64,000 bases of DNA. Origin: a virus. The stretch spans positions 96,001 through 160,000 of IMG/VR virus record IMGVR_UViG_3300035188_001379; one strand, given 5' to 3'. A model generated the notes under the pieces. It saw only the letters and a program-made list of their open reading frames with translations, made no database searches and was not told where the DNA came from. The position numbers were made by a program, and so were the translations under genes. Of this stretch, positions 31,130 through 49,860 are shown piece after piece. How positions within the stretch are numbered: the first letter of the stretch is position 1; every line of letters starts with the position of its first letter.

Positions 31130-31576
31130 ATGCCGGCAGAATCAAAAGCACAACAAAGACTAATGGGTATGGCGCTAGCAGCTAAAAGGGGTAAAGGAGA
31201 GTATAGCGATAAAGTAAAAGAGCTAGCTGATAGTATGAGTGAAAAGCAGCTTATGGAATACGCTAAAACTAAAATTTCAGACCTACCCGAAAAGAAAGCA
31301 TTCATTCTAGGTTTTGTAAAAAAAGCCGAGGAATATAGCATATCTAAAAGCAATGCTCTCGAATTGCTGAAAGAGGCTGCCCCTGCTCTCAGAGCGCTGC
31401 AAGAAGTATTAGGTAGTTCTGCAGGGAGAGCACTTATGGAGGGAGTCGCCGATCCAACTAGAGCGGCTCTAGCAAGAGGTAAAGTTTCAGGACAAGATCT
31501 TATGCTAAGACGCAGGCTAGCTGATACTGCTAAAAAACTAAGAAGAAAGTTTAACACAGACCATACGTCATTTTAA
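31130..31576 (+). CDS. DUF3008-like domain + GFVKxA module protein
   Basis: MPAESKAQQRLMGMALAAKRG...SMSEKQL (DUF3008-like, from memory), then AFILGFVKKAEEYSIS. Confidence 0.7.
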   Translation: MPAESKAQQRLMGMALAAKRGKGEYSDKVKELADSMSEKQLMEYAKTKISDLPEKKAFILGFVKKAEEYSISKSNALELLKEAAPALRALQEVLGSSAGRALMEGVADPTRAALARGKVSGQDLMLRRRLADTAKKLRRKFNTDHTSF

Positions 31577-31594
31577 TTATAGGCTAGCCTGCGC

Positions 31595-33703
31595 ATGAAC
31601 TACAACACACCTATTAGAGACGTTTCAAACCCTGTGATTAACGCAGGGCTTGAAGCTTTATTTGGCAAGAATCTTATTCCTTCAAGGCTTGAAGGAGAAG
31701 ACATGATAGACGCTCTTAATAGGCGAGATCGTACACTAGCTTTTAGAGAGAGTGCTGCAAACAATTTTGCAGATAATCCAATTGTTAGCCGCCTAGGTGA
31801 AAAAGGGTCTAAAGCCTTGGGTAAAATGGACGCACTCTCCGGGGGCAAGCTCAGCGGTTTCTTGAGTCCTATGCTTGGCGGTAACACATATAAGGCTACA
31901 GAAAATGTGCATAACATGCTGCACAATCCTGCAGCTATGAGTGCTTTTGGTGGAGGAAATCACAATTCCGAGAATATTATGAAGGCATTACACAAGAACT
32001 TCTATAAGCATGCCGAGAATGCTTCTTTAGCGGGTAGCTATATTAATCAGAACATAGGAGAGCTACCAACCATCAAAGAACCGGAGAGTATTTCTTTTAC
32101 ACCTGTAGACAATGGTAAGAAAGTAGGGATGGGCTCAGGCTCTAGCACTTTTGCTGGAAAAACACCAGTACAACATGCTGAGCACTATCCTAGTCGCAGT
32201 GCAGATAAAGCTATCCCAAGAAAGTCTGGTAAAGCCACAATCTCAAAAATACCTATGGGACGTATGCCTGCAGCTATGAGTAAAATGGCTCTAGATGATA
32301 AGAGTGACACACACACCTATAGAATGGAAGGTAACGTGCAAGGAGTAGGTTTGCGTAAAGCTCTACATAAAATACTTGAGGAAAATAGACTCAATGGGCT
32401 TGCTGTGAACTATCCAGAAACAAACGAGGTATATGCTACCATACAAGGAAGGAAAAAGAGGATAGATCAGATTCTTGATGAGCTTAAGGCCCGTCTGGCG
32501 GTGAGAGAAAAAAAGCCTCTGGCTTACGGAACAGACTATAGCATCGAGCACGCTCCAGCCATGAAGGAAAGGATGCGTAGGGTTGTATTTACTCCAAAAG
32601 ATATAGAGGTGTTTGAGCAAAACAATCCTGAGCTCGATAAATTCAAAACAGTAGATCTAGAGAATAAACTCAAATATTTTGAAGACCGCTATAGGCTACA
32701 TAGAGACGCTCGAGGGAAGTTGAGAGGCAGTCTGCCCAATAAAGCCATAGACCAGTTGTTTAATGGTGCTCCTGTGTATCACAGACAGGTATTAGCGCGT
32801 AACGAGAATAACGAGAAAGCTGCGTTCTTTACAGGCTTTCTCAAAAGAGCTGCAGAACATGGCTTTAGCCGCGAGGACACTGTAAAGCTTGCTGCTACAT
32901 ATAAAGAAGCAGTGGCACTTTCAGGAATAGGGAAAGCTTTCGGCACAAAAATGATGCCAAAAATATTTAACATGGCTCGCGGAGCTTTTGGCAGTCTTCG
33001 TTCACTAGGTTCTAGTGTACCTGAGGGGCCTCTACACACTGAAAGAAATGCAGCGTTAGAAGCGGGAAACAAGTTTATTGAAAACTTCAAACCTGAAGGT
33101 TTTCGTATGTACGCAGGTCGAGTAAAAACACCTGAGAGTCTTGCTGGGCATGGAGGAGGGGTTACAAACGACTTGCTAGGTATTAGAATGAGGCCTAGCA
33201 AGGGAGGCTATACTCAGGAAAGCGCAGACAACCTTGTAAATCAATTAAGACAGGCAGGGGTAAATGTAAGTGGGCAGAAAAAACTTGTAAGACCTGGGTA
33301 TCACGGCTGGAACATAAAAGGAACATTGCCTCACGCTACTGGGGATGTACCTATCGAAGTGCAGATGACTCCGAGAAGAATGCAGGGCATATTTGCAGCG
33401 AACCATGCGTATGTATACAAGCCAGAAACATCTGGAGTCTCTCCAGCGGTATCAAAGGGCATCTATGACCCAGCATTAAACTATGTGACAAACGTGCTTT
33501 CACCGATGAGTAGCCCAGCCAAGAGAATAGGTTATGGTGCTGCCGGGGTAGGTGCGCTAGGTACAATGGGCGGTGTTGGCTATAACGCTGTAAAAGGACC
33601 AAATAACGCAGCGCAAAACAATGGAGAAGCCTTCAATAGTCAGGCTATATATGATAGAGTTCAGACTAGTCCCGCTAGCTATCTAGCTCAGCAAACAAGA
33701 TAA
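31595..33703 (+). CDS. modular protein: acylphosphatase-like + GFxKRA module + RelA/SpoT-like domain
   Basis: EGNVQGVGLR (acylphosphatase); GRVKTPESL, DLLGIR, GYHG, EVQM, H...YK (RelA_SpoT synthetase motifs). Confidence 0.75.
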   Translation: MNYNTPIRDVSNPVINAGLEALFGKNLIPSRLEGEDMIDALNRRDRTLAFRESAANNFADNPIVSRLGEKGSKALGKMDALSGGKLSGFLSPMLGGNTYKATENVHNMLHNPAAMSAFGGGNHNSENIMKALHKNFYKHAENASLAGSYINQNIGELPTIKEPESISFTPVDNGKKVGMGSGSSTFAGKTPVQHAEHYPSRSADKAIPRKSGKATISKIPMGRMPAAMSKMALDDKSDTHTYRMEGNVQGVGLRKALHKILEENRLNGLAVNYPETNEVYATIQGRKKRIDQILDELKARLAVREKKPLAYGTDYSIEHAPAMKERMRRVVFTPKDIEVFEQNNPELDKFKTVDLENKLKYFEDRYRLHRDARGKLRGSLPNKAIDQLFNGAPVYHRQVLARNENNEKAAFFTGFLKRAAEHGFSREDTVKLAATYKEAVALSGIGKAFGTKMMPKIFNMARGAFGSLRSLGSSVPEGPLHTERNAALEAGNKFIENFKPEGFRMYAGRVKTPESLAGHGGGVTNDLLGIRMRPSKGGYTQESADNLVNQLRQAGVNVSGQKKLVRPGYHGWNIKGTLPHATGDVPIEVQMTPRRMQGIFAANHAYVYKPETSGVSPAVSKGIYDPALNYVTNVLSPMSSPAKRIGYGAAGVGALGTMGGVGYNAVKGPNNAAQNNGEAFNSQAIYDRVQTSPASYLAQQTR

Positions 33704-33710
33704 TTTAAGC

Positions 33711-36700
33711 ATGAATAAAATTGGAGATAACGCAGAAGCCTCAGCACAACCGTTTGCAGGTAGAACTCAGCCGTTTGCTAATAGTGAGATATCTGCAGAA
33801 AGCGCAGCAATAAACACGAATAGGAGCATTCAGCCGGGTACAGGGGCCATAGCTGACTCTGCTCCTAGTGTTTCTTCTAGAAGTTTAAAAAAAACTCCAG
33901 GAGTTAACACTAATATCACAACTCCTCCGCCTAGAATTCCTGAAGCTCAACAAAAAGCCTCTCCTGCTGGCGCTGTGGGTGCCGCTGGAGGAGTTGTGTC
34001 TGCTTTTGGCAGACGAGGAGGTGTAATAGGTGCTGCAACTAATCTTGCTTCTGAAGATGTGCCTGGCGCTGTATCTAACGTAGCAAGAGCTGTGAGCCCA
34101 AAATTGAATGTATTTTCTAGAGCATTAGACGCAGGCAAAAAACTGATTAAAGGCAATCCTGTAGGTGCAGGACTTGAGATGGCAGGAGCTGTAGTGCCTG
34201 TTGTGCCTGATCTAATAAATACAGGAAAAGATTTCATAAATCAGATCGACGAGCAAGCAGAACAGAATAGGCAATTTAATAAGAGAAACAGAGAGGTGCG
34301 TGGAAGTCTAGAGGCGCGTAATACTGGGATAGCTGATGTGGACGGCAATATCTTTGTGAACACCAATGACGCTGTGCTTCTAGATAAATTAGGCTTTGAG
34401 GTTGCAGATTACGATCTGCTGGAGAAGACGAGCGAGGTGCTAGACCTATACTCGTATATCGAGAAAGTGGCAGAAGTTCCTAGAGAAGTAGCTAAGCTCA
34501 TAGACGAAGGCAAAGCGTTCAGTGCTGAGTATCTTAAGGAAATGGAGTATAACGTACCAAAAGGCTACGAAGTAAAAGGTGACCTATGTTGTCCTTCTGA
34601 GAAGACTGAAAAGGAGAAAAAGCGTCTCTCTGAGAAGACTGCTTCAATTCAAAAACAAGCTGTAAACTTTGGGCAGATAGCAAAGGCTATAGGTGCAGGT
34701 GTAAACAAAATTGCTCCAACTGTGGCAAATGCAGTGCACAGTGCTGCTCCTGCTGCTGCAAAACAAAAAGCAATTGTTAAGCAATTTCAAGACCCATCTA
34801 AAATAGGATTTAAAAGCGTATATCCTACCGAGCCAGTTATGCCTGCAGGCACAAATCCAAAAAAGTGGAGAGCAGATGTAGCTGAGGGGATGCAGCAACA
34901 CCAAACTCTAAGCAGAATAAGACAAGACTCTTCTGGACACCAAGCCGCTTTTAGTTTCAATGCTCCGAATTCGTCGGGGGTAGATGAATTGCATAATGTC
35001 TGGGTGCATCCTGAAATGATACATACAAATCAGCAAGGTAAAGGGCTTGCAGCTCATGACAGACAGCTTGTCAATGCACTCATTGAGAACACTCAAACGG
35101 GGCAGAAATGGGCACAGCCAATGTACAGGTCTACCGGCACGAATAGTGAGCATACAGTAGGACAGTGGCTACCAACCAGAGGATTTGGTGCACCTAGTGA
35201 AGACTGGGTTAACGCAGTAAAAACAAAAATAAATCCAGAATTTGAAATGCCTCAACCGGTACCTGGAGTTTTACCGCAATTTGTAGGACCCAGCAATCAA
35301 GGGCCAGGAGGATTAAAAGGGCCAGGTTGGCTTGGTAAATATCAATTTAATCCTAGCACACAACAGTGGATGGTGCATGACAAAACAGACGCAGGAGTTA
35401 ACGCTCTTATGCCTGTATATCAAAGATTGCGTGAAGCAATGGGAGAGTATATGGGAAATATTGGGCTAGCTAAGCAAGGATCTGAGAAGTCTGCTTCTGA
35501 AAGTAAGCCTGGGCTATGGGCAAATATTCATGCAAAGAGAAAGCGTGGAGAGAAAGCTGCTAAACCTGGAGATGAGGATTACCCAGATAAGAAGCAATGG
35601 GATAAATTGAGTAAAAAAGGAGAAGCCGATCCAGAACAGTCTATATTGATCTCAGGTCACAGTGGTGCAGGAAAGAGTACGCTCGCGAAAGAACTATCTA
35701 AATTACTAGATATGAATCTACGTAGGGTAGATGCACACAAAGGATTTAGTGACTATGTTAAAAAAGACCACGAACACTGGGAAAAGTCATTGTCTGCTGG
35801 AACAAAAGAGTACGAGAGGTTTAATAAAATTATAAATAACGCTAATAGACACGTGCTGAGAAATGCTCCAGAGGCTTCAATTATCGAAGGCACTCAACTA
35901 GGTCATCTTTCTCCAGAAGAACTCAGCAAGTTCAAGGCACACATTCTGGTAGGAGGTACTCCAGAACAGTCTATAATGCAAAGAATAGCTAGAAGCGCAA
36001 AAAAGAAAGGTGTCGAGTTCTCTCCAGAAGAAATTGAAGCTAGGAGAATAAAGGCAAAGAAAGTGGTAGACTTCTGGGAGCCTGGTATTGAAAAGTTCAG
36101 AAAGCTGCCAGGGACGCTGCAATATAATCACACAGAGCATGAGGTGGAGCCTTTGGTAGAACAACTGCGTGCACTAATGAGCAAGCAGGCAGCATCTGCA
36201 GCATGGCAGCGCAGTGAAGGCAAGAATCCTGAAGGTGGATTAAACGCTAAGGGCAGGGCTAGCTATAAGAAGCAAACAGGAGGCACCCTCAAAGCTCCAG
36301 TAACAGAGAGTAACCCGTCTGGTGAAAGGGCTAAGCGTCAGAATAGCTTCTGTAGTCGCATGTGTGGAATGAAGAGTAAGAACACGGGCAGCAAGGCTCA
36401 GAGCGATCCAGATAGCCGCATCAACAAATCGTTACGTAAGTGGAACTGTAAGTGTGGCGAAGATCACAGTTCATTGTTCGAGAAAATAGCCTGTAACTTT
36501 AAAGAAGCTAAGAGTAGGTGCTGGGAAGGCTATGAGCCTGTTCCTGGTAAAGATCCTTATAGTGAAGACAGTTGCAGACCTAAGGGCAAAAAGAAAAAGA
36601 TAGAAAAGAATGCCTCTACCGCTTGGAAAAAGAGACTTCGCACAGGTAAGCTGAGCGTCGATGGAGTTAACGCGATACTGCGAAGTAGTGGGCTGAGTTC

Positions 36701-37637
36701 AACTATGTCGCCTGAAAGTTGGCACAAGAGTCTTTCCGATCCTAGGTATTCTAAGGGAATACTGTATGGGCATAGAGAGAGAGGAAAATCGGAAAATGTA
36801 TTTAATCGTAAATATACCGTGCAACCTTTTAGTGAACAAGAACATTTGGATCGTCTTGCGCGAACCAACTTAGGCTCTCTAGCTAGGGAGGCGGCATGGA
36901 GGCATCCGGATAGTATATATCCCTACTATAAAGCTCATATGATGGATACTCGTGCAGGACAGGATGCTCAAGCAGTAAAAGAAACAATTAATGAACTATC
37001 GTATGATTCTAAGCAAAAGCGTTATATGCGAATTCTTCAAAAAATGTACGATAAAAGAGAGAAAATGCCCACTAGCCGTAAAAAATTTTTAAGCGATTCT
37101 TCTGACTACCCTAGAGAAAACTGGCGCGGCATGTCTCTACAGCAAGCAAACGACTTGCTCGACAGTGCTGGGCAAACTGGGAATCATGGTCCGCAGGCAG
37201 TTCCAGACTTAAATACGATTGCTGGTCCTGTGGGTGTAGGGCAGCCAATCACCAGGCATGAGATTTCTCATCTAGTGGATCGTAATATGCCACAAGCTCA
37301 ACGGCTAGCTGTTTTGAAAGAACTGCACCAAACACTTAAAAGAAATCCTGAAGTTATGCGAGGTATACTTAGATATAAAGATCCGACCAAGGCTATATCT
37401 GAGTCTTTTGCGCAATTGATAGGTAGCAGAGGCAATTCAAATTCAGCGAAAAGGTTTATTGACTCATATGTTGACGCTGCAAAAAATTCAAAAATATGGG
37501 ATATGCAGCAAATACTTCCTAAATTACTTGAACGTGATCCTTCTGGGCGAGACGCTGCCGTTGTTTCTCAGTTGATAAGAAGATACGGCCTTAGGTTACC
37601 TGATTACGCGCGACACCAAGGCGCTCTACCTCTATGA
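33711..37637 (+). CDS. 1308-aa multi-module protein (P-loop kinase-like, small cyanophage-type domains, zincin-like domain)
   Basis: GHSGAGKST; GLWANIHAKRKRG; AAWQRSEGKNPEGGLNAKGRASY; CWEGYEPVPGK; RHEISH; modules joined by K-x-A motifs. Confidence 0.75.
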   Translation: MNKIGDNAEASAQPFAGRTQPFANSEISAESAAINTNRSIQPGTGAIADSAPSVSSRSLKKTPGVNTNITTPPPRIPEAQQKASPAGAVGAAGGVVSAFGRRGGVIGAATNLASEDVPGAVSNVARAVSPKLNVFSRALDAGKKLIKGNPVGAGLEMAGAVVPVVPDLINTGKDFINQIDEQAEQNRQFNKRNREVRGSLEARNTGIADVDGNIFVNTNDAVLLDKLGFEVADYDLLEKTSEVLDLYSYIEKVAEVPREVAKLIDEGKAFSAEYLKEMEYNVPKGYEVKGDLCCPSEKTEKEKKRLSEKTASIQKQAVNFGQIAKAIGAGVNKIAPTVANAVHSAAPAAAKQKAIVKQFQDPSKIGFKSVYPTEPVMPAGTNPKKWRADVAEGMQQHQTLSRIRQDSSGHQAAFSFNAPNSSGVDELHNVWVHPEMIHTNQQGKGLAAHDRQLVNALIENTQTGQKWAQPMYRSTGTNSEHTVGQWLPTRGFGAPSEDWVNAVKTKINPEFEMPQPVPGVLPQFVGPSNQGPGGLKGPGWLGKYQFNPSTQQWMVHDKTDAGVNALMPVYQRLREAMGEYMGNIGLAKQGSEKSASESKPGLWANIHAKRKRGEKAAKPGDEDYPDKKQWDKLSKKGEADPEQSILISGHSGAGKSTLAKELSKLLDMNLRRVDAHKGFSDYVKKDHEHWEKSLSAGTKEYERFNKIINNANRHVLRNAPEASIIEGTQLGHLSPEELSKFKAHILVGGTPEQSIMQRIARSAKKKGVEFSPEEIEARRIKAKKVVDFWEPGIEKFRKLPGTLQYNHTEHEVEPLVEQLRALMSKQAASAAWQRSEGKNPEGGLNAKGRASYKKQTGGTLKAPVTESNPSGERAKRQNSFCSRMCGMKSKNTGSKAQSDPDSRINKSLRKWNCKCGEDHSSLFEKIACNFKEAKSRCWEGYEPVPGKDPYSEDSCRPKGKKKKIEKNASTAWKKRLRTGKLSVDGVNAILRSSGLSSTMSPESWHKSLSDPRYSKGILYGHRERGKSENVFNRKYTVQPFSEQEHLDRLARTNLGSLAREAAWRHPDSIYPYYKAHMMDTRAGQDAQAVKETINELSYDSKQKRYMRILQKMYDKREKMPTSRKKFLSDSSDYPRENWRGMSLQQANDLLDSAGQTGNHGPQAVPDLNTIAGPVGVGQPITRHEISHLVDRNMPQAQRLAVLKELHQTLKRNPEVMRGILRYKDPTKAISESFAQLIGSRGNSNSAKRFIDSYVDAAKNSKIWDMQQILPKLLERDPSGRDAAVVSQLIRRYGLRLPDYARHQGALPL

Positions 37638-38361: not shown

Positions 38362-39392
38362 ATCTAGAAGATTTTAAAAACGGATGTAACAAGCAAAAAG
38401 AAGACTCTAGAGACAGAGTCTATAAGCCAAAGATCGTTCATTGGACGCATCTCAATGATATAGATCTTCGGAAAGATTGCAGCGCACCTAGAGCTCAAGG
38501 AAACATTGGTTCGTGTACTGCTTTTGCTGCCACAAGCATGTTTGATTTTGTGAGAAGGAAAAACAGCATGGTGAGCTGGCAGCCTAGTCCTCTTTTCACA
38601 TACTACGCCACACGAAAAGCAGTAGATCCTGTACTAACAGATTCTGGAGCAACTGTACGAGACGCTCTTAAAAGTGCCGCAAGAGATGGAGTAAGTATGG
38701 AGCGGGTATGGCCATATATCGTTGAGAAGTATAACGAGCATCCGCCAGAAGAGGCGTGGAATATTGCAGAAAAGCATCAGGCTCTCGAGTATCTAAAGCT
38801 CAATGACTTTGATAAGAGCGAATGGCTTAACTGTCTCCATGAGGGATATCCTTTTATATTTGGATTAAACCTATATGCGTCTTTCTTTGATCCTTTCATG
38901 CAGCTTCTTGGAGGATTCATGCTAGATCCTGATAGAGAAAATGAAAAGCTTGTGGGCGCACACTGCATGATGGCTGTTGGTTATATTAAGAACTACAATA
39001 ATAAAGAGTATCTCATAGTTCAGAACAGCTGGGGCACTGGTTGGGGAGACGGTGGTTATTGCTATATTCCACTAAGCTATATCATGACTAACGATAGCTT
39101 TGATTTCTGGACAATTAGACTTACAGAAACTAGCGACGAGTACGCTAGCGATCCTATCGAAGAGCCTAAGCCAGAACCAAAGCCTGAGCCAGTTCCTGAG
39201 CCTGCGGTAGAACCTCCTGCTCCTGAACCTGAACCTATAGTAGAACCTCCCTCTCCTGTTGTAGAGCCTGTTGTAGAGCCTGTCGCACCGGCCCCGGCGG
39301 TAGAAGTAGTGGAAGCTAAGCGCAAAAACCTACCATTCTATATAGTAATGGCTATAGGTGTGCTACTCTTACTTGTTTTTATTTTTGGATAA
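38358..39392 (+). CDS. papain-like (C1A) cysteine protease with PE-rich linker and C-terminal TM
   Basis: QGNIGSCTAFA (Cys), GAHCM (His), QNSWG (Asn); PEP repeats; hydrophobic C-terminus. Confidence 0.9.
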   Translation: MNLEDFKNGCNKQKEDSRDRVYKPKIVHWTHLNDIDLRKDCSAPRAQGNIGSCTAFAATSMFDFVRRKNSMVSWQPSPLFTYYATRKAVDPVLTDSGATVRDALKSAARDGVSMERVWPYIVEKYNEHPPEEAWNIAEKHQALEYLKLNDFDKSEWLNCLHEGYPFIFGLNLYASFFDPFMQLLGGFMLDPDRENEKLVGAHCMMAVGYIKNYNNKEYLIVQNSWGTGWGDGGYCYIPLSYIMTNDSFDFWTIRLTETSDEYASDPIEEPKPEPKPEPVPEPAVEPPAPEPEPIVEPPSPVVEPVVEPVAPAPAVEVVEAKRKNLPFYIVMAIGVLLLLVFIFG

Positions 39393-39396
39393 ATCT

Positions 39397-40395
39397 ATGC
39401 TAAAGCTTGCTAAATATATTGAAAAAACTGGGATGAATCTCAGTTACATGAAGAATGCGCTTAGAGCTGCTCGCGCTGCGGGTGTACCTATTCTTCGAAG
39501 TGAGGATGCACTAAAGTCTCATATAGCCCAAAACGTGACACCCTCTTTTTTAAAGAAAATCCCTTTCATTGGAGAACGGATGCACGACGCTACAACTAAC
39601 CTTGGAACTAATGCGTTAACCTTGAAAGGGCCTGTAGCTGTGCCTGGCCATAATTTTGTATACATGCCAAGAAGTTTTACAAACGGAGCAGGACAAAATT
39701 ATTCTCCTAGAGCGACATTGTTACATGAGTTAGGCCATATACAACACATGCAAGAAGATCCAAAGTCTTTTGGAACAATGGGTCAGTTAAATCGTGTTTT
39801 TAGTTCACCCGTAAATGCTAGAAGTAGAATGAATCTAACTGAAACTATAGCGAACAACAACGCAATTATGGATATGCGTGCAGCTAATGTTCCTGAGCAT
39901 TTAATAGATACATATAAAACTAGGGTGCAGTCTCCTTTTCATAATAGTTATGGGCTAAACCTAGAAAATATTGGAAATAGCCCTACTGGGAATATGAATT
40001 TACCTAGAAGAATTTTGCACGGTGCAACACAAAGACTTTCAGATATGGGAAAAAATATTGCAGGAATTGGAAAAAGTTTTTGGCAAAGCTTTAAAAAACC
40101 CAAGCAACTAGATGCAAATTTTTCTGGAACGGTACCAAATACCCAGGCAAGCCTGCCTGGACCTTTAAGACCGTACAAACCATCAGCCGACTTCATGAGC
40201 AAATTTAACGCCTCTTTAGGCAAAGCTAACAATGCGGCAATTTCTCCTGTCATGGAGCGCCCTGCGCATATCCCTGCGCGACAAGCCGAAGTTCGAAGAT
40301 TTTCAAGTAAAGCAACAGGTTTTGCTCCACTAAAAAAGATCCCAGTTTACACACATCCGGCTGCACAAGAATTTAACGTACCTTATTCAGTATAA
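39397..40395 (+). CDS. zincin-like (HExxH) protein with K-x-A leader
   Basis: MLKLAKYIEKTG start; ATLLHELGH...E..ANNNA. Confidence 0.65.
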   Translation: MLKLAKYIEKTGMNLSYMKNALRAARAAGVPILRSEDALKSHIAQNVTPSFLKKIPFIGERMHDATTNLGTNALTLKGPVAVPGHNFVYMPRSFTNGAGQNYSPRATLLHELGHIQHMQEDPKSFGTMGQLNRVFSSPVNARSRMNLTETIANNNAIMDMRAANVPEHLIDTYKTRVQSPFHNSYGLNLENIGNSPTGNMNLPRRILHGATQRLSDMGKNIAGIGKSFWQSFKKPKQLDANFSGTVPNTQASLPGPLRPYKPSADFMSKFNASLGKANNAAISPVMERPAHIPARQAEVRRFSSKATGFAPLKKIPVYTHPAAQEFNVPYSV

Positions 40396-40440
40396 AATAA
40401 ATCTTTATCTGGAGCAAAGCAATTGCTAGAATTACAAAAT

Positions 40441-41568: not shown

Positions 41569-41573
41569 ATAAT

Positions 41574-41831
41574 ATGACCCCCGAAGAAGCATATATCGAA
41601 GGATTCGTGAAAAGAGCAACACAGTATGGACTTAGTGAAGCTGAGGCATTTGAGCTGTTAAAAAGCGCTGTCGACCAAGATGCAGTAGCACAACCTGGTA
41701 TGAGATCCGCTACGGCTAAACCTGGTCCTGAGCGTTACGTACCTCCAGCTCCTCCTACTGGTGTGCCAGCAGTCTCGCTTGACTCTTTAGATAGTCGTAA
41801 AAAGGGTCCCGTAGCGCAAAGAAGAAGATAA
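41574..41831 (+). CDS. small GFVKRA module protein
   Basis: AYIEGFVKRATQYGLSEAEAFELLKSA. Confidence 0.7.
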   Translation: MTPEEAYIEGFVKRATQYGLSEAEAFELLKSAVDQDAVAQPGMRSATAKPGPERYVPPAPPTGVPAVSLDSLDSRKKGPVAQRRR

Positions 41832-41835
41832 GCGT

Positions 41836-43107
41836 ATGAACAGACGCGAATTCCTTTACACTGGTTTGTTCGGTGGGTTAGGAATTGGTATGGGAGATCT
41901 GTTCAGACTAAGAGCTGAGTCATCTCTAACTGCGAAGGCCGCGTCTGTTATTCATATTTTCCTGCCTGGAGGAGCAGCAGCGCAGGAAACATGGGATCCT
42001 AAAGTAAATGCTCCTTCAGAGTATCGTGGGCCGCTAAAGAGTATTCCTACAGCTATTCCTGGGATACACTTTAGCGAGCACATGAAGAATACAGCTAGAG
42101 TAGCTGATAAGATCACTCTTGTGCGCTCTATGACTCATGGCGAAGCTGCTCATGAGCGGGGTACCACCAGCATGTTTACAGGCTATAAGCCTAGCCCTGC
42201 TGTAAACTATCCTTCGTTTGGTAGCGTTGTGTCTCATGAGCTTGGAGGCGCTAATAATTTACCTGCATATGTATGCATCCCCCAAAAAATCAATAATAAT
42301 GGTAACGATGTCGCTGGCAGTGGTTTTCTCTCTAACTCGTATGGTCCTTTCAGTCTTGGATCAGACCCGGCGAGTAAAGGGTTCAAGGTAAGAGACCTTG
42401 ACTCTAATGTGAGCGCTGATCGCTTTGAGCGTAGAAAGAGTATACTTGAAACAGTGGACGGTCATTTCAAGTATATGGAGAGCACTGACGCGTTGGTGTC
42501 GATGGATACGTTCTACCAGCAAGCATATGCTCTGCTTAGCTCTGAGAAAGCTAGAGCAGCATTTGATCTGACAAAAGAAACAGCAAAGACCAGAGAAGAG
42601 TACGGACTCTCTGAAGCAGGCCAAAGATTTCTTATGGCTCGTAGGCTTGTAGAGAGTGGTGTGAAGTTTGTGAGTGTCACATATGGAGGGTGGGACATGC
42701 ACAACAATATAGGTGTACAGATAGATAAGCAGCTTCCAGCTTTTGATAAGGCTTACGCGGCCCTGATTAATGATCTTGATCAAAGAGGAATGCTAGAGAA
42801 TACACTGGTGATGGTAAGCAGCGAGTTTGGACGCACACCTAAGATAAATATGAACGCTGGGCGCGATCATTGGCCTAGAGTGTTCAGCGTTGCATTTGCT
42901 GGAGGAGGATTCAAGAGAGGGCTTGTGTACGGAACAAGCAGTGTCACAGGCGATGATGTTGACAGTAACCCTCTGTCTGTAGAAAACCTTGCAGCTACCT
43001 TGTATCATCAGCTAGGTATCAACCCAGAAGGCTCTCTTATGGCTGATGGTGGACGCCCTGTAAAGATTGTGTATAATGGTACTGTGATGCAAGAACTATT
43101 AGCATAA
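41836..43107 (+). CDS. DUF1501 family protein with Tat signal
   Basis: MNRREFL; SVIHIFLPGG..QETWDPK; ARRLVESGVKFV; GWDMH; SEFGRTPKIN..GRDHWP. Confidence 0.92.
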   Translation: MNRREFLYTGLFGGLGIGMGDLFRLRAESSLTAKAASVIHIFLPGGAAAQETWDPKVNAPSEYRGPLKSIPTAIPGIHFSEHMKNTARVADKITLVRSMTHGEAAHERGTTSMFTGYKPSPAVNYPSFGSVVSHELGGANNLPAYVCIPQKINNNGNDVAGSGFLSNSYGPFSLGSDPASKGFKVRDLDSNVSADRFERRKSILETVDGHFKYMESTDALVSMDTFYQQAYALLSSEKARAAFDLTKETAKTREEYGLSEAGQRFLMARRLVESGVKFVSVTYGGWDMHNNIGVQIDKQLPAFDKAYAALINDLDQRGMLENTLVMVSSEFGRTPKINMNAGRDHWPRVFSVAFAGGGFKRGLVYGTSSVTGDDVDSNPLSVENLAATLYHQLGINPEGSLMADGGRPVKIVYNGTVMQELLA

Positions 43108-43109
43108 TT

Positions 43110-44471
43110 ATGAGCGACTGTGGTAATCATCCTTCTTTCTCTAGCCGAAGAGAATTTCTAAATGATTTTGCATGGGGTATGGGCGGCTTATCGCTTGCCT
43201 CTATTCTAAATTTTAGTACTCATACGCTAGAGGCTAGCGGAGCACTAGGAGCAAAGAAACCGCACTTTCAACCAAAAGCAAAAGCAGTAATTCAATTGTT
43301 TGCTAGTGGTGCTCCTAGTCATGTAGACACTTTCGACTATAAGCCAGAGCTGCAGAAAAGAGATGGAGAGAAGCACGATTATGGAAATCTGCTAGCTTCT
43401 CCTTTTGAGTTTAAAAGATTTGGTAAGTCTGGTATACACTATTCTGAAGTGTGGAGCAAGCTTGCCGGTCATGCTGACGACATCGCAATAATCAACAGCA
43501 TGCAGACTCCAATACCTGACCACGGTATTGCTAGCAAGTTCCTACACACAGGAAGCTCTCAGTTGAGTAAGCCTAGTCTTGGTAGTTGGCTTGTATATGG
43601 GCTAGGTACATTGAATGAGAATATGCCAGGGTTTATCTCGTTAAACTCTTCTCCTGAGTCTAGGCAGTGTGCATTTCTTCCTGGGATGTATCAGGGTTGT
43701 AATGTGTCCTATCGCCAAGGCATGAATCCTAACGAGATTCTTGCAAATCTACGTAGCGAGTTCAGCACAATAGAAAGACAAAGAAGGCAGATCGATCTAG
43801 CTAGAAGTCTGAGTTTGGATCATATGAGCAAGCTGCAGAAAGACACACAGCTCGAGGCCAGACTAGAGTCTTTTGAAACTGCGTTTAAGATGCAGACCGA
43901 AGCCACTGACGCTTTTGATACGAGCAAAGAGAGTGAAGCTGTTAAAGACTTGTATGGCAGAACAGAAGAAGGCGCAAGAATGCTTGTGGCTCGTAGACTT
44001 GTAGAAAAAGGAGTACGGATGGTTCAGGTAAATGTAGGAGGCTATGATCACCACTCTGATATTAAAAATGCTATGAGTAATACGGCTCGTAGATATGATC
44101 AGGCATTTTCTGCGTTGCTTACAGATTTGAAGCAAAGAGGATTACATAAAGACGTACTTGTTGTTTGGGGTGGAGAGTTTGGTAGAACTGTAACTAGTGG
44201 AGGAGGTGCAGGTGCTCCTGGCAGAGATCACAACGGTAAAGCTTTTAGCGTCTGGATGAGTGGCGGTGGAGTGCAAGGAGGACAAAGATATGGTGAGACT
44301 GATGAGATAGGAGCTAAAGCTGTAAAAGACGTCACAGGCATTCATGATCTGCACGCTACAATTTTACATCTGATGGGGTTTGACCACACAAAGCTTATCT
44401 ACGAGTATAACGGAAGACCGTTCAGGCTTACTGATGTATACGGTGATGTGATTAAAGAAATCACAGGCTAG
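43110..44471 (+). CDS. DUF1501 family protein (second subfamily) with Tat signal
   Basis: SRREFL; HFQPKAKAVIQLFASGAPSHVDTFDYKP; WGGEFGRT; GRDHN; HDLHATILHLMGFDH. Confidence 0.92.
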   Translation: MSDCGNHPSFSSRREFLNDFAWGMGGLSLASILNFSTHTLEASGALGAKKPHFQPKAKAVIQLFASGAPSHVDTFDYKPELQKRDGEKHDYGNLLASPFEFKRFGKSGIHYSEVWSKLAGHADDIAIINSMQTPIPDHGIASKFLHTGSSQLSKPSLGSWLVYGLGTLNENMPGFISLNSSPESRQCAFLPGMYQGCNVSYRQGMNPNEILANLRSEFSTIERQRRQIDLARSLSLDHMSKLQKDTQLEARLESFETAFKMQTEATDAFDTSKESEAVKDLYGRTEEGARMLVARRLVEKGVRMVQVNVGGYDHHSDIKNAMSNTARRYDQAFSALLTDLKQRGLHKDVLVVWGGEFGRTVTSGGGAGAPGRDHNGKAFSVWMSGGGVQGGQRYGETDEIGAKAVKDVTGIHDLHATILHLMGFDHTKLIYEYNGRPFRLTDVYGDVIKEITG

Positions 44472-44508
44472 CTCTAGCAGTCTAAAACTAACCTAGAAAT
44501 AATTTATA

Positions 44509-44955
44509 ATGCACAACACAACATCAGCAATAAACGACATAGAGAAATACGCAGACCCCACTAGTTCTAGGTATGGGAAGCTTTTGAACTGGCCTGATCC
44601 TGTATGGCCGATTTGGCACTATGGCATCGGGCTATCTGATACCTATATTTTTGATACTGGTAAGGGTTGGCAAGCCTTTCAAAGAGTAGATGCCAAAGAA
44701 GTAATTGGAGTCGATCATTTGCACCTAGCTTCAGTCGATGTGATTGACCGATTAAAAAAGGCTGTAGAGTGTTTTAAATCATGGAGCTATCATCTGCTGG
44801 GCTGGAATTGTGAACATATGAGCAGACTTGTAGCAACTCAAGAAGCTCGCTGCTATGCAATAGGACCTGTACTAGGTTTGCGTTTAGCTGGTGACGGAGT
44901 AAACCACGACGCAGACAAGCTGTTTGCAGAATACATTAAAATTAAAGACAGCTAA
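44509..44955 (+). CDS. LRAT-like (permuted NlpC/P60) domain protein
   Basis: WHYGIG ... YHLLGWNCEH. Confidence 0.75.
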   Translation: MHNTTSAINDIEKYADPTSSRYGKLLNWPDPVWPIWHYGIGLSDTYIFDTGKGWQAFQRVDAKEVIGVDHLHLASVDVIDRLKKAVECFKSWSYHLLGWNCEHMSRLVATQEARCYAIGPVLGLRLAGDGVNHDADKLFAEYIKIKDS

Positions 44956-44959
44956 AATT

Positions 44960-45934
44960 ATGAATAGTACTGAGGCATATCTTCAAAAAGTTGCTACAGC
45001 TTGGAAGGAGCGGCTTAGAGCTGGAGTACTAGGCACAAAATCTTTAGGTAAAATACTAGACCGGGCAGGTATGTCTAGACCTGATGAGGGAGTTAAAAGA
45101 TTACACGAACGTGTTTCTCATCCTGCGTACGCTAAAGGGCAAGAGTATCATAACCCTATGAGAGGACGCCCGATAAAACGTAACCCGAACTACACCTACG
45201 ACAACACGCGCAAAGATCTGAAACAGATCAGCCGCGCGTTGGCTGACAGATCCGGTGAATACAGGTCATCTGATCTTTTCAGTATTTTTCCAAGCTATAA
45301 GGGGCATTTAGATAGAAGGATTGTTGACGGGTACACCAATTACATAGCACAGAACGCAGGTGAAGATGGTGCTGTCTTGGCGAAGCTAGTAGCCAGACGG
45401 GATAAAACCCCCATTTCATCAAAAAAATTCATAGGCAGCAGTGAGGGAGTTATTCCTTACGATCGCAATAAGCCTTGGCATGAGCAACTTAAACAAACGC
45501 GACAATCACCATACGGAGCGGGTATGGCTCTCCAAGATATAAGTGCAGCATTAGCTCCTTTAGGTATAGGGAGCCCTACTGCCAGACATGAGATTGCACA
45601 TCTCATTGATAGTAGTCTTCCTCGAGCTGATAGGTTTGCTGTTTTGAAAGAGCTGCATCAAACACTTAGAAGAAATCCTGAGGTTATGAGGGCTATAGCT
45701 AGGCAGGGTTTGGAGGGGTCTGTGTTTATACGTGAAGGAATGGCGCAAATGATAGCCAGTAAAGGCAATTCAAATTCTGCAAAAAGATTTATTTCTAAAT
45801 ATATTGATGCTGCGAAAAACTCAGGCATAGATGATTTGCTGCGGCTGCTTCCTAAATCCTTAGAAAAGGATCCTTCGGGGCGAGATGCTGCCGTAATAAC
45901 TCAATTGATGCGTAACTATGAGCTTCGGGTTTAA
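44960..45934 (+). CDS. zincin-like protein, paralog of the 33711 C-terminal domain
   Basis: KVATAWKERLRAG; ARHEIAH; AVLKELHQTL.RNPEVMR; DPSGRDAAV. Confidence 0.75.
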   Translation: MNSTEAYLQKVATAWKERLRAGVLGTKSLGKILDRAGMSRPDEGVKRLHERVSHPAYAKGQEYHNPMRGRPIKRNPNYTYDNTRKDLKQISRALADRSGEYRSSDLFSIFPSYKGHLDRRIVDGYTNYIAQNAGEDGAVLAKLVARRDKTPISSKKFIGSSEGVIPYDRNKPWHEQLKQTRQSPYGAGMALQDISAALAPLGIGSPTARHEIAHLIDSSLPRADRFAVLKELHQTLRRNPEVMRAIARQGLEGSVFIREGMAQMIASKGNSNSAKRFISKYIDAAKNSGIDDLLRLLPKSLEKDPSGRDAAVITQLMRNYELRV

Positions 45935-45949
45935 GACAAGCTTGGCTCT

Positions 45950-46393
45950 ATGAAAAAGACATACGCTTGCGCTATATGCGGCAAGATCTGGAATAGACGT
46001 ACGCTAAGGATGGAGCAGGGGAAAACCTGCAGTAAGAAGTGCGCAAGTATTAAAGGTTATTTGAGCGGAGACCGCAAAGAGACAGGTATAGAGCTCAAAC
46101 TACAGTCGCTACTACTGGCTCTAGATATTGAATTTGAAACGCAGAAGCCTATCCTTGGGGTTACGATAGCTGACGTGTTTATTCTACCCAACGTAGCTAT
46201 ATTTGCAGATGGCGCATACTGGCACGGAGACCCGATGACTCAGTATAAAGACGCAGAGAAAACAAAAAGGCTTAGGCGTGCAGGCTATGTTGTATTGCGG
46301 CTGGATGAGGAAGAAATCGAAGAAGACACTGAGCTTGTAAAATCTAAATTGCTGGAAGCGTATAATTGTCGTAGAATAACAAAAAAACTTTAA
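45950..46393 (+). CDS. Zn-finger + DUF559/Vsr-like endonuclease
   Basis: CAICG...CSKKC; ET.IE..L; ADVF; FADGAYWHG; GYVVLRL. Confidence 0.75.
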   Translation: MKKTYACAICGKIWNRRTLRMEQGKTCSKKCASIKGYLSGDRKETGIELKLQSLLLALDIEFETQKPILGVTIADVFILPNVAIFADGAYWHGDPMTQYKDAEKTKRLRRAGYVVLRLDEEEIEEDTELVKSKLLEAYNCRRITKKL

Positions 46394-46401
46394 ATTTAAA
46401 T

Positions 46402-46758
46402 ATGGCGACAACGAAACTATCAGAGCTTAACGAAGGGAAAAAACCAGAAGGACACAAAAGAAGTTCTCGCTGGGGTAAAACAAGAAAAGCTCATCTGAAG
46501 GAGAATCCTACGTGCGCGCTTTGCGGAGGAACTAAAAAACTGGAAGTGCATCATATTCATCCTTTCCATACACACCCAGAACTTGAATTAGAGGCAAGCA
46601 ATCTAATTACTCTCTGCGAAGACAAAGGAGACGGAGTATACTGCCATTTATTTTTTGGGCATTTAGGTAGTTATAAATGCGTTAATCCTACAATTCGTGA
46701 AGACATACTTATCTGGAGAGAAAAGCTCGCAGGTAGAAATAAAGACTTCAGTTTGTAA
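46402..46758 (+). CDS. HNH endonuclease
   Basis: CALCG...LEVHHIHP....PEL.....NLITLC...CH...H. Confidence 0.85.
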   Translation: MATTKLSELNEGKKPEGHKRSSRWGKTRKAHLKENPTCALCGGTKKLEVHHIHPFHTHPELELEASNLITLCEDKGDGVYCHLFFGHLGSYKCVNPTIREDILIWREKLAGRNKDFSL

Positions 46759-46788
46759 TTTAAGGCTGGTAAAATATTTAATTAAGTC

Positions 46789-47196
46789 ATGAATACCCAG
46801 CAACAAGCGTATATCTACGGATTCGTAAAAAGAGCAGCCGAGCACGGTGTTAGCGAAGATAAAGCTCTTGACCTCTTGAAAGAAAAAATGGGGCCTTTCG
46901 ACGCTGAGCGTGCTGCCGACATGCTTGCAGCAGAGGTAAAGCTTAAAGCGTTAACTCACAATAAAAAAGAACACCCGTACCACTACTATTTAAATCCTTT
47001 TGTAGGAGGTCCTCTTACAGAAGTAATGACTAAGTTAGATAGACGTGGTTATGCAGGAATAGCAGACGACGAAGTACTCGCACATCATTTAATTGGAGGG
47101 CCTTTGTTAAATATGTACAGGGGAGGAAAAGAAACAAGAAACAAGGTTAGAGAAAAGTTCAATAAAGCTGTGGAAGACTATTCTGGAGAAAAATAA
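46789..47196 (+). CDS. GFVKRA module protein
   Basis: MNTQQQAYIYGFVKRAAEHGVS. Confidence 0.7.
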   Translation: MNTQQQAYIYGFVKRAAEHGVSEDKALDLLKEKMGPFDAERAADMLAAEVKLKALTHNKKEHPYHYYLNPFVGGPLTEVMTKLDRRGYAGIADDEVLAHHLIGGPLLNMYRGGKETRNKVREKFNKAVEDYSGEK

Positions 47197-47219
47197 GGTT
47201 AATTTTAACACGCATACAT

Positions 47220-47957
47220 ATGAGCAAAGCTATACAATATCTTGAAAAACTGGCAGCAAAAAAAGAAAAAGAAAAAGAGCGGGGTATAGGGTTAAGTGGG
47301 GTAATAGGAGCTCCATTACTCGCTGCTGGTGTTTTGGGGCTGGCCGGCAGTGTTCCTGCCACTAAGATGCTTTTACGCGGAGCTCGGGTGCCAGAGAAAA
47401 AAACCTTACTGTCTAAGCTAATGCCTAAGAGTTACGATGCGCGGGATTTTGTTGCGGACTATATTGCTACAAGTCGCGGTGTAGGTCATACACCATATGC
47501 AAAGCCTTTAAAAGCGTACGCAAAGACACAAGCAAAGCCTTCTATCACATATCCAACAGCTGAATTGGCTGTGAAAGAGATGGAAGACCACTACGATAGC
47601 TTCTTGTCTAAAGATCCAAGAAATGCGGTACGTAAATGGATTGATGAAGTGGTTGCACATAAAAAAGAAAATTTTATTAAAAATAACCCCGATTTTAAAG
47701 GAAACAGAATTACTCAAGATTTCGAAGCACGAGGACAAAAATTAAAAGATTATATAGCGCAACCTCACGAAGACACACTAAAACTTATAAGAGAAATAGA
47801 AGATCCTGAGCTTTTAAAAATGCTGATCAATATGCAGTCACAAAAGGCAAAGGTTTCTGGTTTTTATGGTAAACTCGGTCTTGGTGGTTTAGGTTTGGCT
47901 GGAGTTGGGGCAGGGCTTGTAGGAAAAGAAATTTATGACCAGTCACAAAAAGAATAG
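47220..47957 (+). CDS. K-x-A leader protein with Gly-rich hydrophobic ends
   Basis: YLEKLAAKK; GLSGVIGAPLLAAG and GLGGLGLAGVGAGL. Confidence 0.65.
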   Translation: MSKAIQYLEKLAAKKEKEKERGIGLSGVIGAPLLAAGVLGLAGSVPATKMLLRGARVPEKKTLLSKLMPKSYDARDFVADYIATSRGVGHTPYAKPLKAYAKTQAKPSITYPTAELAVKEMEDHYDSFLSKDPRNAVRKWIDEVVAHKKENFIKNNPDFKGNRITQDFEARGQKLKDYIAQPHEDTLKLIREIEDPELLKMLINMQSQKAKVSGFYGKLGLGGLGLAGVGAGLVGKEIYDQSQKE

Positions 47958-49860
47958 CGAGAGTAATTCTGAAAAAGCTGAAAACGCGCTAACCGTTGCC
48001 TCTGGTGGATTAGGGGCAGCGGCCTTGGCTAAATTTATATACTCTGGAGGTCTGCGCGGAGTAGATCTAGATGCTGCGCCTAGTGTGCAGATTATGAGTA
48101 ACAACGAGGGGTCTTTTGGTAATCAGGCAAAAGGACTAGAAAGTTTGCTGAAGGCCGAAGGCATCAAGACTGCCCCATTTTCATGGGGGTTTACTGGAGC
48201 AGGTGAACGTAAGCCTGGTTGGCAAAGAATTCTGCATGCTCCGTTTAGTGATGCCTCAATATATTTAGGACATAACACAAATGTTCTTAAACATCTAGCT
48301 GATATAGGTAAACTGAAGTATAGAGTAAATACTGACTTCAGAGAGGGTAATTTTTTAAGCCCTCACATACTGCATCATGGCGGATCCGGTGAAACGTTAA
48401 AGCAAAGCTTGGCGCGTAAAATAATCTTACTGCTCGGAGGCGGAGATAAAATGGCGGTAAGAGAAAACCCTAAACACTACGATAGGTTTTTTACACCAGG
48501 AGACGCGTCGGAAGCAATGCCTGAGATGTATCAAGGTAAAAAACCGTCTGTAATGACGGGCAACATACCTACAAGAGATATATTTGGAGAAACTCCATAT
48601 AATGAAAAAAAATGGAGTCCAGGAGAAAAAATAAAAGCTATACTCACAACAGGAGGAGGCAACGCAATGCCTCAAGTTTTTGACGAGCTTGCCTCGGAGC
48701 ATGCTGGGCTAGCCAAAGGGGCACCTAGACCATCTTTGTACGATGTAGATAAAAGATGGATATCTCCGAAGCCCTGGAGAAACTATGATGTAAAGAAAAA
48801 GTTTTTCATAGATGACATCCTTGAGAATTTAAGAAAAACGCATGGAAAAGATAACGTAGAATTAGACTGGCTAACTGGGTATAACCCTAAAGTTACAGCG
48901 TGGCCAGGCAATGTAGAGCTTATGCATGAGCTTAGGGAGCATATGAAAACTCCTGAAGGTGCAGAAAGGTTCAAGGGATTGAACGTACTGGATCATATAG
49001 ATGATATGCCTAAGGCTTTTTCTGATGCTCACTATATTTTTGCTACTCCGGGGAGTACTGTAGCTGAAGTGATGCGTATGCCTGGGGAGCATGTACCTAA
49101 ACTTGTGAATATGCTTCCAAATCAGGAGGCGGAGGGGTACATGAATCACTTTACAACAAACGCAAACGAGACAGTCAAAAAGTTTCCAGGGGCTAAAGTG
49201 TGGGATGCCACCGCAGAAGACAGAAATGCTGCTCTTGCTAAAATAATGGCAGAGCCTCACAGCATAGCAAAAGGCAGAACTAAAGGCTACGAAACAAGCA
49301 TGGGAGATATTGGGAGAGTTATTCGAGAAGACGTCAAACAAAACAAAGTTAAAAACATAAAAACTCTTTTGGCGCTTACAGGTGCAGGTCTTGGAGCTTT
49401 CGGATTATCCAGGGTAATTAAAAAAATAAGAGAGCTGCGTGCAAAAAAACCTGAAAAAGAAGAGACAAAGCAAGCCGAGTTCTTTTCAAAGATCGCTAGC
49501 TTCATAAAAGCTTCAGGCAGCGACATCGATATCATGTTTGATAAAAAGGTAGAGACAAAACCTAAAGACCCTCTAGATGGCAGGCTTAAGAAGAACAAAG
49601 CTATTGTAGAGGTCAAAGAAACAGGGTTAGAGGAGCCCAAGCTGCACAAGCATAAAATAAAAATAGCTCTCGAGAAACTTAGAGGAGGAAAAGGAGACCG
49701 TAAATCAGACGAGTCTTTTTCGAGTAGTGAATTAAGAAAGGGAACCACACACGAGCTAGAGCATACAAAAGATAAAGAGCTTGCGAAAGAAATCGCTAAA
49801 GATCATTTGAGTGAAGTTAAAGACTATTACTCGAAGCTACAAAAAGCAAATATAGACTAG
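47935..49860 (+). CDS. GT-B glycosyltransferase-like domain + DUF5661-like C-terminal domain
   Basis: TGNIP.R, ILTTGGG, LTG, IDDMPKAFSDAHYIFATPGSTVAE (MurG/GT28-like); GTTHELEH...IAKDHL.E..DYY.KL (DUF5661-like, from memory). Confidence 0.65.
   Translation: MTSHKKNSESNSEKAENALTVASGGLGAAALAKFIYSGGLRGVDLDAAPSVQIMSNNEGSFGNQAKGLESLLKAEGIKTAPFSWGFTGAGERKPGWQRILHAPFSDASIYLGHNTNVLKHLADIGKLKYRVNTDFREGNFLSPHILHHGGSGETLKQSLARKIILLLGGGDKMAVRENPKHYDRFFTPGDASEAMPEMYQGKKPSVMTGNIPTRDIFGETPYNEKKWSPGEKIKAILTTGGGNAMPQVFDELASEHAGLAKGAPRPSLYDVDKRWISPKPWRNYDVKKKFFIDDILENLRKTHGKDNVELDWLTGYNPKVTAWPGNVELMHELREHMKTPEGAERFKGLNVLDHIDDMPKAFSDAHYIFATPGSTVAEVMRMPGEHVPKLVNMLPNQEAEGYMNHFTTNANETVKKFPGAKVWDATAEDRNAALAKIMAEPHSIAKGRTKGYETSMGDIGRVIREDVKQNKVKNIKTLLALTGAGLGAFGLSRVIKKIRELRAKKPEKEETKQAEFFSKIASFIKASGSDIDIMFDKKVETKPKDPLDGRLKKNKAIVEVKETGLEEPKLHKHKIKIALEKLRGGKGDRKSDESFSSSELRKGTTHELEHTKDKELAKEIAKDHLSEVKDYYSKLQKANID

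Follow-up and report, generated by a model that had tools for sequence, protein, structure and literature searches.

Polyprotein-like genes and a recurrent tag

The window analysed here comprises 64,000 nucleotides (positions 96,001 to 160,000) of the virus record IMGVR_UViG_3300035188_001379, a phage contig of 184,465 bp whose ends overlap by approximately 190 bp. The subject of this report is the segment between positions 31130 and 49860 of the window, a block of 18 tightly packed open reading frames (ORFs) in one orientation (all on the plus strand), which is a candidate source of proteins packaged into the capsid and released there by a protease. The original prediction, made from the sequence alone, described about a dozen co-oriented genes in which unrelated domains are punctuated by a Lys-x-Ala (K-x-A) motif. 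Each motif instance that it listed was found in the translation of the ORF concerned, and 11 of the 18 ORFs do encode multi-module or leader-bearing (hereafter cargo-like) proteins, but the interval also contains seven unrelated genes. The domains found in the cargo-like proteins are DUF3008, acylphosphatase, a RelA/SpoT-like domain, a P-loop kinase, DUF6321, DUF5661, three zincin-like domains with an HExxH motif and an NlpC/LRAT-like domain. Pfam and PHROG scans assigned no family to most of the cargo proteins or to most proteins of the phage head operon, which lies outside the window.

A tag of approximately 32 residues recurs in this set, with the consensus M-N-T-x-Q-A-Y-I-x-G-F-V-K-R-A-x-E-Y-G-x-S-x-x-E-A-x-x-L-L-K-x-A. 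It is a conserved helical unit of two helices, the second of which is closed by K-x-A. Eleven copies are present in the genome, six in the block and five in proteins of the head operon; two of the latter share one gene (L001:15585-16721) between the protease and scaffold genes, a position that is kept in related phages. Internal tags have a K-x-A before them. When the tag profile was compared with 1.84 billion proteins, 710 cluster representatives were recovered, 320 of them at an E-value (E) of 1e-10 or better. The tag was N-terminal in 112 of the best 150 matches, and 90 N-terminally tagged proteins fell into 62 unrelated families, mostly without a Pfam domain. Among 221 copies, 131 ended in K-x-A and 17 more in K-x-[GS], giving 148 that ended in K-x-[AGS].

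The first gene of the block (31130..31576) encodes a 148-aa protein with a DUF3008 domain (Pfam E 3.6e-13), the sequence E-K-K-A, the first tag copy (31292-31393; residues 55-88 as the envelope of the hidden Markov model, HMM), which ends L-L-K-E-A, and a 60-aa tail; the ortholog in relative G004 bears a different tail. It is followed by a 702-aa polyprotein (31595..33703), the N-module of which (residues 10-141) terminates in F-Y-K-H-A. Next come M-S-K-M-A, an acylphosphatase domain (residues 242-299, Pfam E 1.6e-7), N-E-K-A-A, the second tag copy (32816-32917) and Y-K-E-A. A RelA/SpoT-like domain may occupy approximately residues 477-641, a lead only, which comes from an Atlas structure match with a template modelling (TM) score of 0.60 and a feature score of 0.86. 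The largest product is a 1308-aa polyprotein (33711..37637), in which kinase, DUF6321 and zincin-like modules are separated by K-x-A. Its low-complexity N-terminus precedes a conserved module at residues 202-313, and E-K-S-A at residue 595 is followed by the GLWANIH module and the P-loop kinase (residues 645-766; AAA_18, Pfam E 8e-8). M-S-K-Q-A (827) then leads to DUF6321 at residues 837-911 (Pfam E 1e-20), F-E-K-I-A and F-K-E-A (927 and 933) to the CWEGY module, and I-E-K-N-A (968) to an HExxH zincin-like domain.

Shorter cargo-like proteins are encoded further downstream. A zincin-like protein with the sequence HELGH (39358..40395; weak Peptidase_M91 match, E 0.1) probably starts at the ATG at 39397, which gives it the leader M-L-K-L-A-K-Y-I-E-K-T-G. 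The 381-aa protein encoded next (40423..41568) has two tags (40450-40551 and 40999-41100; HMM domain E 8e-15 and 4e-16), both ending in K-x-A, with T-K-T-A before the second one and an EF-hand-like stretch after it; the second half of this protein exists as a stand-alone tagged gene in relative G004. An 85-aa protein (41574..41831) consists of an N-terminal tag (41583-41684, HMM E 2.4e-17) ending L-L-K-S-A and a short Pro/Ala-rich tail. A further 148-aa protein (44509..44955) is NlpC/LRAT- or PPPDE-like according to weak Pfam matches (Peptidase_C97 E 0.003, LRAT E 0.06), and its leader terminates in I-E-K-Y-A at residue 15. The zincin-like HEIAH protein (44924..45934), a paralog of the C-terminus of the 1308-aa polyprotein, probably starts at the ATG at 44960; its leader ends L-Q-K-V-A immediately before the shared domain, its Atlas record begins at residue 13, and the paralogous block begins immediately after the motif in both copies. 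The last three genes encode a 135-aa protein (46789..47196) with an N-terminal tag (46801-46902, HMM E 5.9e-17) and a 100-aa domain conserved in relative G001, where the ortholog is 54% identical; a 245-aa protein (47220..47957) without a family match, whose leader ends L-E-K-L-A at residue 12 and which has hydrophobic Gly/Ala-rich stretches at each end; and a 641-aa protein (47935..49860), in which F-S-K-I-A (521) and I-K-I-A (578) precede a C-terminal DUF5661 domain (Pfam E 1.2e-6).

The K-x-A motif in the head operon and in the block

The original prediction had suggested looking for the protease and capsid genes elsewhere in the genome and for K-x-A at the capsid propeptide. The head operon was found at 4.9-20 kb of the genome, where split multisubunit RNA polymerase beta-type genes adjoin the head genes, and it encodes 15 proteins, in which all gapped residue pairs were scanned. 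Expected counts, here and below, come from residue shuffles within each protein, which control composition. Among pairs with an expected count of at least 5, K-x-A ranked first (87 against 42.9, z-score (z) 6.6), and the remaining 202 proteins showed no excess of it (z −0.7). This excess, although located outside the window, is the strongest piece of evidence in the analysis. The excess persisted when the tags were removed (77 against 41, z 6.2), and it was stronger for hydrophobic-x-K-x-A (45 against 11.5, z 11). The sites of known maturation proteases were not in excess in the operon, as far as the T4-type [LI]-x-E (z 0.1) and the herpesvirus-type [VLI]-x-A (z −0.7) are concerned, while the phiKZ-type [SAG]-x-E gave z 2.2 in a test that gave K-x-A z 7.9. 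Two scaffold-like proteins of 489 and 313 aa contain 17 and 16 copies of K-x-A, respectively, and a 130-aa protein of the operon contains eight. In the capsid protein, K-x-A is confined to M-E-K-I-A at residue 5 and E-K-K-A-A at residue 27, and the putative prohead protease has 11 copies, including sites at residues 223-234, just past the catalytic domain.

The protease gene (L001:14077-15525) sits in the head operon upstream of the scaffold-like and capsid genes. Its product matches phrog_18299, annotated as "head maturation protease", both as a whole (E 1.8e-9) and over residues 64-215 (E 3.6e-10). In the alignment of the protease domain, His104 and Ser155 are invariant across the homologues of phages Arash, D69, G and Finch, and a zinc-ribbon insert (Cys-x2-Cys … Cys-x-His), which follows the catalytic Ser, is conserved in the same four phages. 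An L-x-K-x-A-A site occupies one shared N-terminal position in the proteases of Arash, D69 and phage G.

Three other loci of the genome drew attention by their motif content or repeats. A 352-aa protein encoded far from the head operon (L003:14103-15161, genome 54103-55161) has no family match and holds the genome maximum of K-x-A, 15 copies against 2.3 expected (z 8.7), with an acidic residue after most of them; it may be an additional substrate of the protease or a decoy. Adjacent minus-strand genes (L007:14009-16568, genome 178474-181033) encode proteins of 563 and 288 aa, also without a family match, with seven and three hydrophobic-x-K-x-A sites against 1.4 and 0.6 expected, which may be additional head components. 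A 1445-aa protein (L002:10064-14401, genome 30064-34401) contains at least four tandem units of approximately 80 residues, each with F-K-[ST]-L-[DE]-x-L-K-[AT]-A-P-E-A-E-K-A-K.

In the block itself, the enrichment of bare K-x-A that the original prediction expected did not appear (52 against 49.9, z 0.4). K-x-[AGS] was below expectation (105 against 126, z −2.2), and the cargo-like proteins without their six tag copies contained 29 K-x-A against 37.2 (z −1.5). The claim was therefore narrowed to an extended motif and to its position. [FYMILV]-[ESQ]-K-x-A occurred ten times in the 11 cargo-like proteins against 1.6 expected (z 6.4), in none of the other seven genes (0.5 expected, z −0.7) and 19 times elsewhere in the genome (13.8 expected, z 1.4); the head operon had nine copies against 2.1, and the clusters of three relatives together had ten against 2.7. 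The looser hydrophobic-x-K-x-A was found 26 times in the cargo-like proteins (10.5 expected), not at all in the other seven genes, including both DUF1501 genes (2.6 expected), and 81 times elsewhere in the genome (73 expected). As for position, the motif was said to fall often near the N-terminus, and it does so: seven of the 18 block proteins have K-x-A within the first 25 residues against 3.1 expected (p 0.02), compared with 19 of 192 in the rest of the genome (20.3 expected). K-x-A also stands just upstream of six of the 11 points at which internal homology blocks begin (1.5 expected, p 0.002), and two more such starts hold the motif in their first residues. The original observation holds once corrected in this respect: the loose motif is not in excess in the block, and what stands out there is the extended form, the location in leaders and at module junctions, and the 32-residue tag with K-x-A on either side.

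The same signal was found in other phages. Ten related contigs from the viral collection encode proteases 60-79% identical to that of the source phage, and among cultured phages Salmonella phage Arash and three Vibrio phages come closest, with approximately 28% identity in the capsid protein and the protease; the matches to Bacillus phage G and Rhodococcus phage Finch in the isolate collection are limited to the protease domain. The head modules of all ten relatives had an excess of K-x-A (z 4.6-7.3) and none of the reverse pair A-x-K. In the ortholog alignments of the ten relatives, conservation was 0.85 for the Lys and 0.79 for the Ala of the motif, whereas the remaining Lys and Ala residues reached 0.61 and 0.53, respectively. 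K-x-A was again the top pair in the head module of Arash (46 against 21.6, z 5.9), with L-x-K second, and it was in excess in that of Vibrio phage D69 (56 against 26.4, z 6.8) and, more weakly, of phage G (z 2.9). In Finch, a high-GC actinophage, the enriched pair was R-x-A (32 against 17.4, z 3.8), which suggests that a basic-x-Ala specificity spans the protease family.

For Arash, a particle proteome has been published (PMC10585845), in which gp95, gp97 and gp100 are abundant (406-1060 spectra, compared with 1333 from the capsid protein). These three proteins bear K-x-A leaders (M-S-L-H-K-L-A, M-E-K-Q-A) or 12 copies of the motif, and the gp95c-gp100c genes (L032, 54867-58971) lie amid tRNA genes, on the strand opposite to the structural modules and at a great distance from them, and may form the counterpart of the cargo block. 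In the first 100 kb of the Arash genome, three of the 12 ORFs with a K-x-A leader are annotated "structural" against a base rate of 13%, which is a small sample. The Arash paper mentions neither a protease nor cleavage (PMC10585845), and a literature search for a K-x-A phage protease motif returned nothing relevant.

Module shuffling between related phages

In three near-complete relatives, the equivalent block consists of many small genes, each with the tag and a different C-terminal part, and the same modules recur in varied architectures, both in relatives G001, G002 and G004 and among 2677 homologues from the database. The modules of the 1308-aa polyprotein are split in this way: one relative has the tag, the GLWANIH module and DUF6321 in a 215-aa protein, and another has the tag and the CWEGY module in a 65-aa protein. 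Whether fused or separate, the GLWANIH/DUF6321 and CWEGY modules have their junctions immediately behind K-x-A (or K-T-S). Four phages share the N-module of the 702-aa polyprotein; its last residues are always [FI]-Y-K-x-[AG], and the modules behind it differ from phage to phage. In all four, K-x-A stands before DUF5661, which in three relatives is joined to other N-terminal parts. For DUF6321, which stands behind unrelated upstream sequences, 93 of 113 database proteins have K-x-A within approximately 15 residues before the domain, and one cyanophage homologue and one pelagiphage homologue lack it there. The idea that the domains were added like beads on a string is thus borne out by the single occurrence of the fused modules in relatives. 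Sequence comparison showed that related phages have acquired, lost, joined or divided modules, which can be attributed to the portability of the address and the cut site. In an AlphaFold2 (AF2) model of residues 580-1000 of the 1308-aa polyprotein, made with 60 homologues (mean predicted local distance difference test score (pLDDT) 69.5, with the kinase region poorly modelled), the sites at 595, 827 and 933 lie at the edges of low-confidence stretches.

The seven genes of the block that do not belong to the cargo-like set fall into three groups. The segment 37634..39392 encodes a pair of small membrane proteins together with a papain-like peptidase of the C1 type, none of which has a tag or leader; the peptidase (Pfam Peptidase_C1, E 1e-12) has a linker rich in Pro and Glu and, at its C-terminus, a membrane anchor. 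These two multi-pass membrane proteins and the papain-family peptidase are 54-80% conserved in relatives, far above the neighbouring cargo genes, and may form a lysis or envelope-acting cassette. Two DUF1501 genes, divergent in sequence, follow at 41836..44471 (Pfam E 1e-112 and 1e-127), with RRxFL (Tat-type) N-termini; the family is typical of Planctomycetota and Verrucomicrobiota, and its presence in a phage is a hint at the host. Finally, a Vsr/DUF559-like gene and an HNH endonuclease gene are located at 45950..46758 (Pfam DUF559 E 6e-8, HNH E 6e-6). Both are kept within the variable block of three relatives, where their orthologs are 64-70% identical, and the two endonucleases could promote the shuffling of modules in the block.

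A candidate capsid-targeting and prohead-protease system

We consider it probable that the block and the head operon belong to one capsid-targeting and prohead-protease system of the T4 kind, with a new Lys-x-Ala specificity and with polyproteins as cargo. The cut, its position, the packaging and the ejection are what we infer, and the steps would be as follows. An address at or near the N-terminus, either the 32-residue tag or a leader of approximately 10-25 residues, would bring the cargo into the core of the assembling prohead. There the His/Ser prohead protease would cut after the Ala of (hydrophobic)-x-K-x-A, by which the address would be removed and the modules of the polyproteins separated, and the same protease would shred the scaffold-like proteins and trim both itself and the capsid protein. 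The freed enzymes (RelA/SpoT-like, kinase, acylphosphatase, zincin-like, NlpC-like) would leave with the DNA, if the analogy to T4 and to phages of the phiKZ type holds. The original prediction regarded K-x-A itself as the packaging and maturation signal; of this, the maturation part is supported, with K-x-A as a probable cleavage site, but targeting is more likely to rest on the 32-residue tag or on the short leaders.

Several observations weigh against this reading. Bare K-x-A is at chance level in the block, much of the motif excess there comes from the repeated tag, and the extended pattern was sharpened post hoc, on data already seen; it carries weight because it was replicated in the head operon and in the relatives. 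The identity of the protease rests on a single PHROG match, the conserved His and Ser and the gene position; its AF2 model from ten orthologs has a mean pLDDT of 42.6, too low for any use, and sequence and profile searches against solved structures found no relevant relative. A search for the tag in Arash, D69, phage G and Finch gave no match, so its link to the capsid is one of co-occurrence alone. Many metabolic enzymes were likewise present in the Arash particles as prepared, which makes presence there weak evidence. Finally, three of the six sites in the modelled part of the 1308-aa polyprotein (617, 927 and 968) lie inside predicted helices.

Other explanations must account for the same distribution. 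The polyproteins could be processed, in the producing cell or after delivery, by the block's own peptidases, be it the C1 peptidase or the three zincin-like domains (HExxH), and autoproteolysis by metallopeptidase domains has been predicted for polyvalent proteins (Iyer et al. 2017, PMC5512222). The presence of these domains and of the papain-like peptidase in the block speaks for such a scheme, but a cargo peptidase explains neither why the motif is densest in the scaffold-like proteins, the protease and the N-terminus of the capsid protein, nor its enrichment in the Arash and D69 head operons, and many tagged proteins of the relatives carry no peptidase module; we therefore regard it as quite unlikely. 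It is also unlikely that the tag is a domain for docking or oligomerisation that joins these proteins into complexes in the infected cell without any link to the capsid, with K-x-A as an uncut feature of helix ends. The tag is indeed a conserved helical unit whose second helix ends in K-x-A, yet docking would leave unexplained the first rank of K-x-A in the tag-free scaffold-like proteins and in the protease, as well as the motif in distant phages that lack the tag altogether, and it does not account for the unrelated sequences upstream of DUF6321 that end in K-x-A (the 93 of 113 above).

The whole pattern might also be a by-product of a Lys/Ala-rich composition and one repeated domain. Bare K-x-A in the block equals its shuffled expectation, and once the tag is removed, little is left of the excess of [FYMILVE]-K-x-A (16 against 12.1 expected). 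However, the shuffles were made within proteins and so control composition, the head-operon excess outlasts the removal of the tags, and A-x-K shows no excess. The positional tests also reached significance, and conservation favours the columns of the motif. This explanation is largely refuted, and we hold it to be very improbable.

The system that we favour, cleavage of tagged or leader-bearing cargo by the prohead protease, has a close parallel in T4, where the capsid-targeting sequence (CTS) on IPI-III and Alt, an N-terminal address ending in the motif of the head protease, is removed by gp21 (PMC5694885, PMC9026906). Features that the two would share are an address on unrelated proteins, one motif for both scaffold degradation and capsid trimming, and hypervariable cargo genes. 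The T4 CTS has approximately 10 residues and is cut after Glu (L/I-x-E), whereas here a 32-residue tag or short leaders end in K-x-A, and, unlike in T4, several modules are chained in one ORF. PhiKZ, 201phi2-1 and SPN3US, whose ejection and inner-body proteins are processed by gp175/gp245, are similar in being large phages with split RNA polymerase genes by the head genes and in having many head proteins with multiple protease motifs, and motif sites after the catalytic domain of the protease fit self-trimming (PMC5694885, PMC10052503). The phiKZ-type proteases, however, cut S/A/G-x-E or A-x-E, and the propeptides often exceed 100 residues and lack a shared tag. The proposed system would work like the T4-type family but with another specificity; the known systems of this type cut after Glu (PMC5694885, PMC10052503).

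No sequence relation was detectable between the proteins of phiKZ, 201phi2-1 or SPN3US and those described here, and the capsid protein and protease of the source phage did not prove to be homologues of the phiKZ capsid protein and gp175: in the isolate collection they matched only Arash, the three Vibrio phages, phage G and Finch. Assemblin, the capsid maturation serine protease of herpesviruses, has sites of the form V/L/I-x-A and cuts before Ser; it resembles the proposed protease in cutting after Ala in a P3-x-P1 motif and differs in P3, which is aliphatic there and Lys here.

In composition, the cargo recalls the polyvalent proteins of phages and conjugative elements, in which zincin-like, RelA/SpoT-like, NlpC-like and kinase domains are strung together and which are presumed to accompany the DNA (Iyer et al. 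2017, PMC5512222). As in that class, unrelated effector-type domains are combined in one polypeptide, namely acylphosphatase and the candidate RelA/SpoT-like domain in the 702-aa polyprotein and the kinase, DUF6321 and zincin-like domains in the 1308-aa one, and weak Atlas leads point to the large polyvalent protein-associated domains LPD1 and LPD23. For polyvalent proteins, release by their own metallopeptidase domains has been proposed and no junction motif has been described, whereas the junctions here bear the motif of the head operon.

A wider claim, which we judge about evenly balanced between true and false, is that a clade of uncultured phages of 170-200 kb possesses a programmable delivery system. 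In it, a folded 32-residue address, present in at least 710 protein clusters, and a Lys-x-Ala site read by a zinc-ribbon His/Ser protease would allow any module to be loaded, singly or as part of a polyprotein, and released in the capsid, and the Lys/Arg-x-Ala specificity would be old in the protease family, reaching Arash, the Vibrio phages, phage G and an actinophage.

If the proposed system is real, Lys-x-Ala would define a third class of capsid maturation proteases besides those that cut after Glu (T4, phiKZ) and those with V/L-x-A sites (herpesviruses), and phages would be able to chain cargo enzymes as polyproteins that are cut inside the capsid. The tag and the cut site could be employed to load foreign proteins into capsids, a use to which the T4 CTS has already been put. 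The finding would also provide a simple sequence rule by which the injected proteins of a large group of uncultured phages could be listed, together with those of Arash and D69, the virion proteins of which are mostly unannotated.

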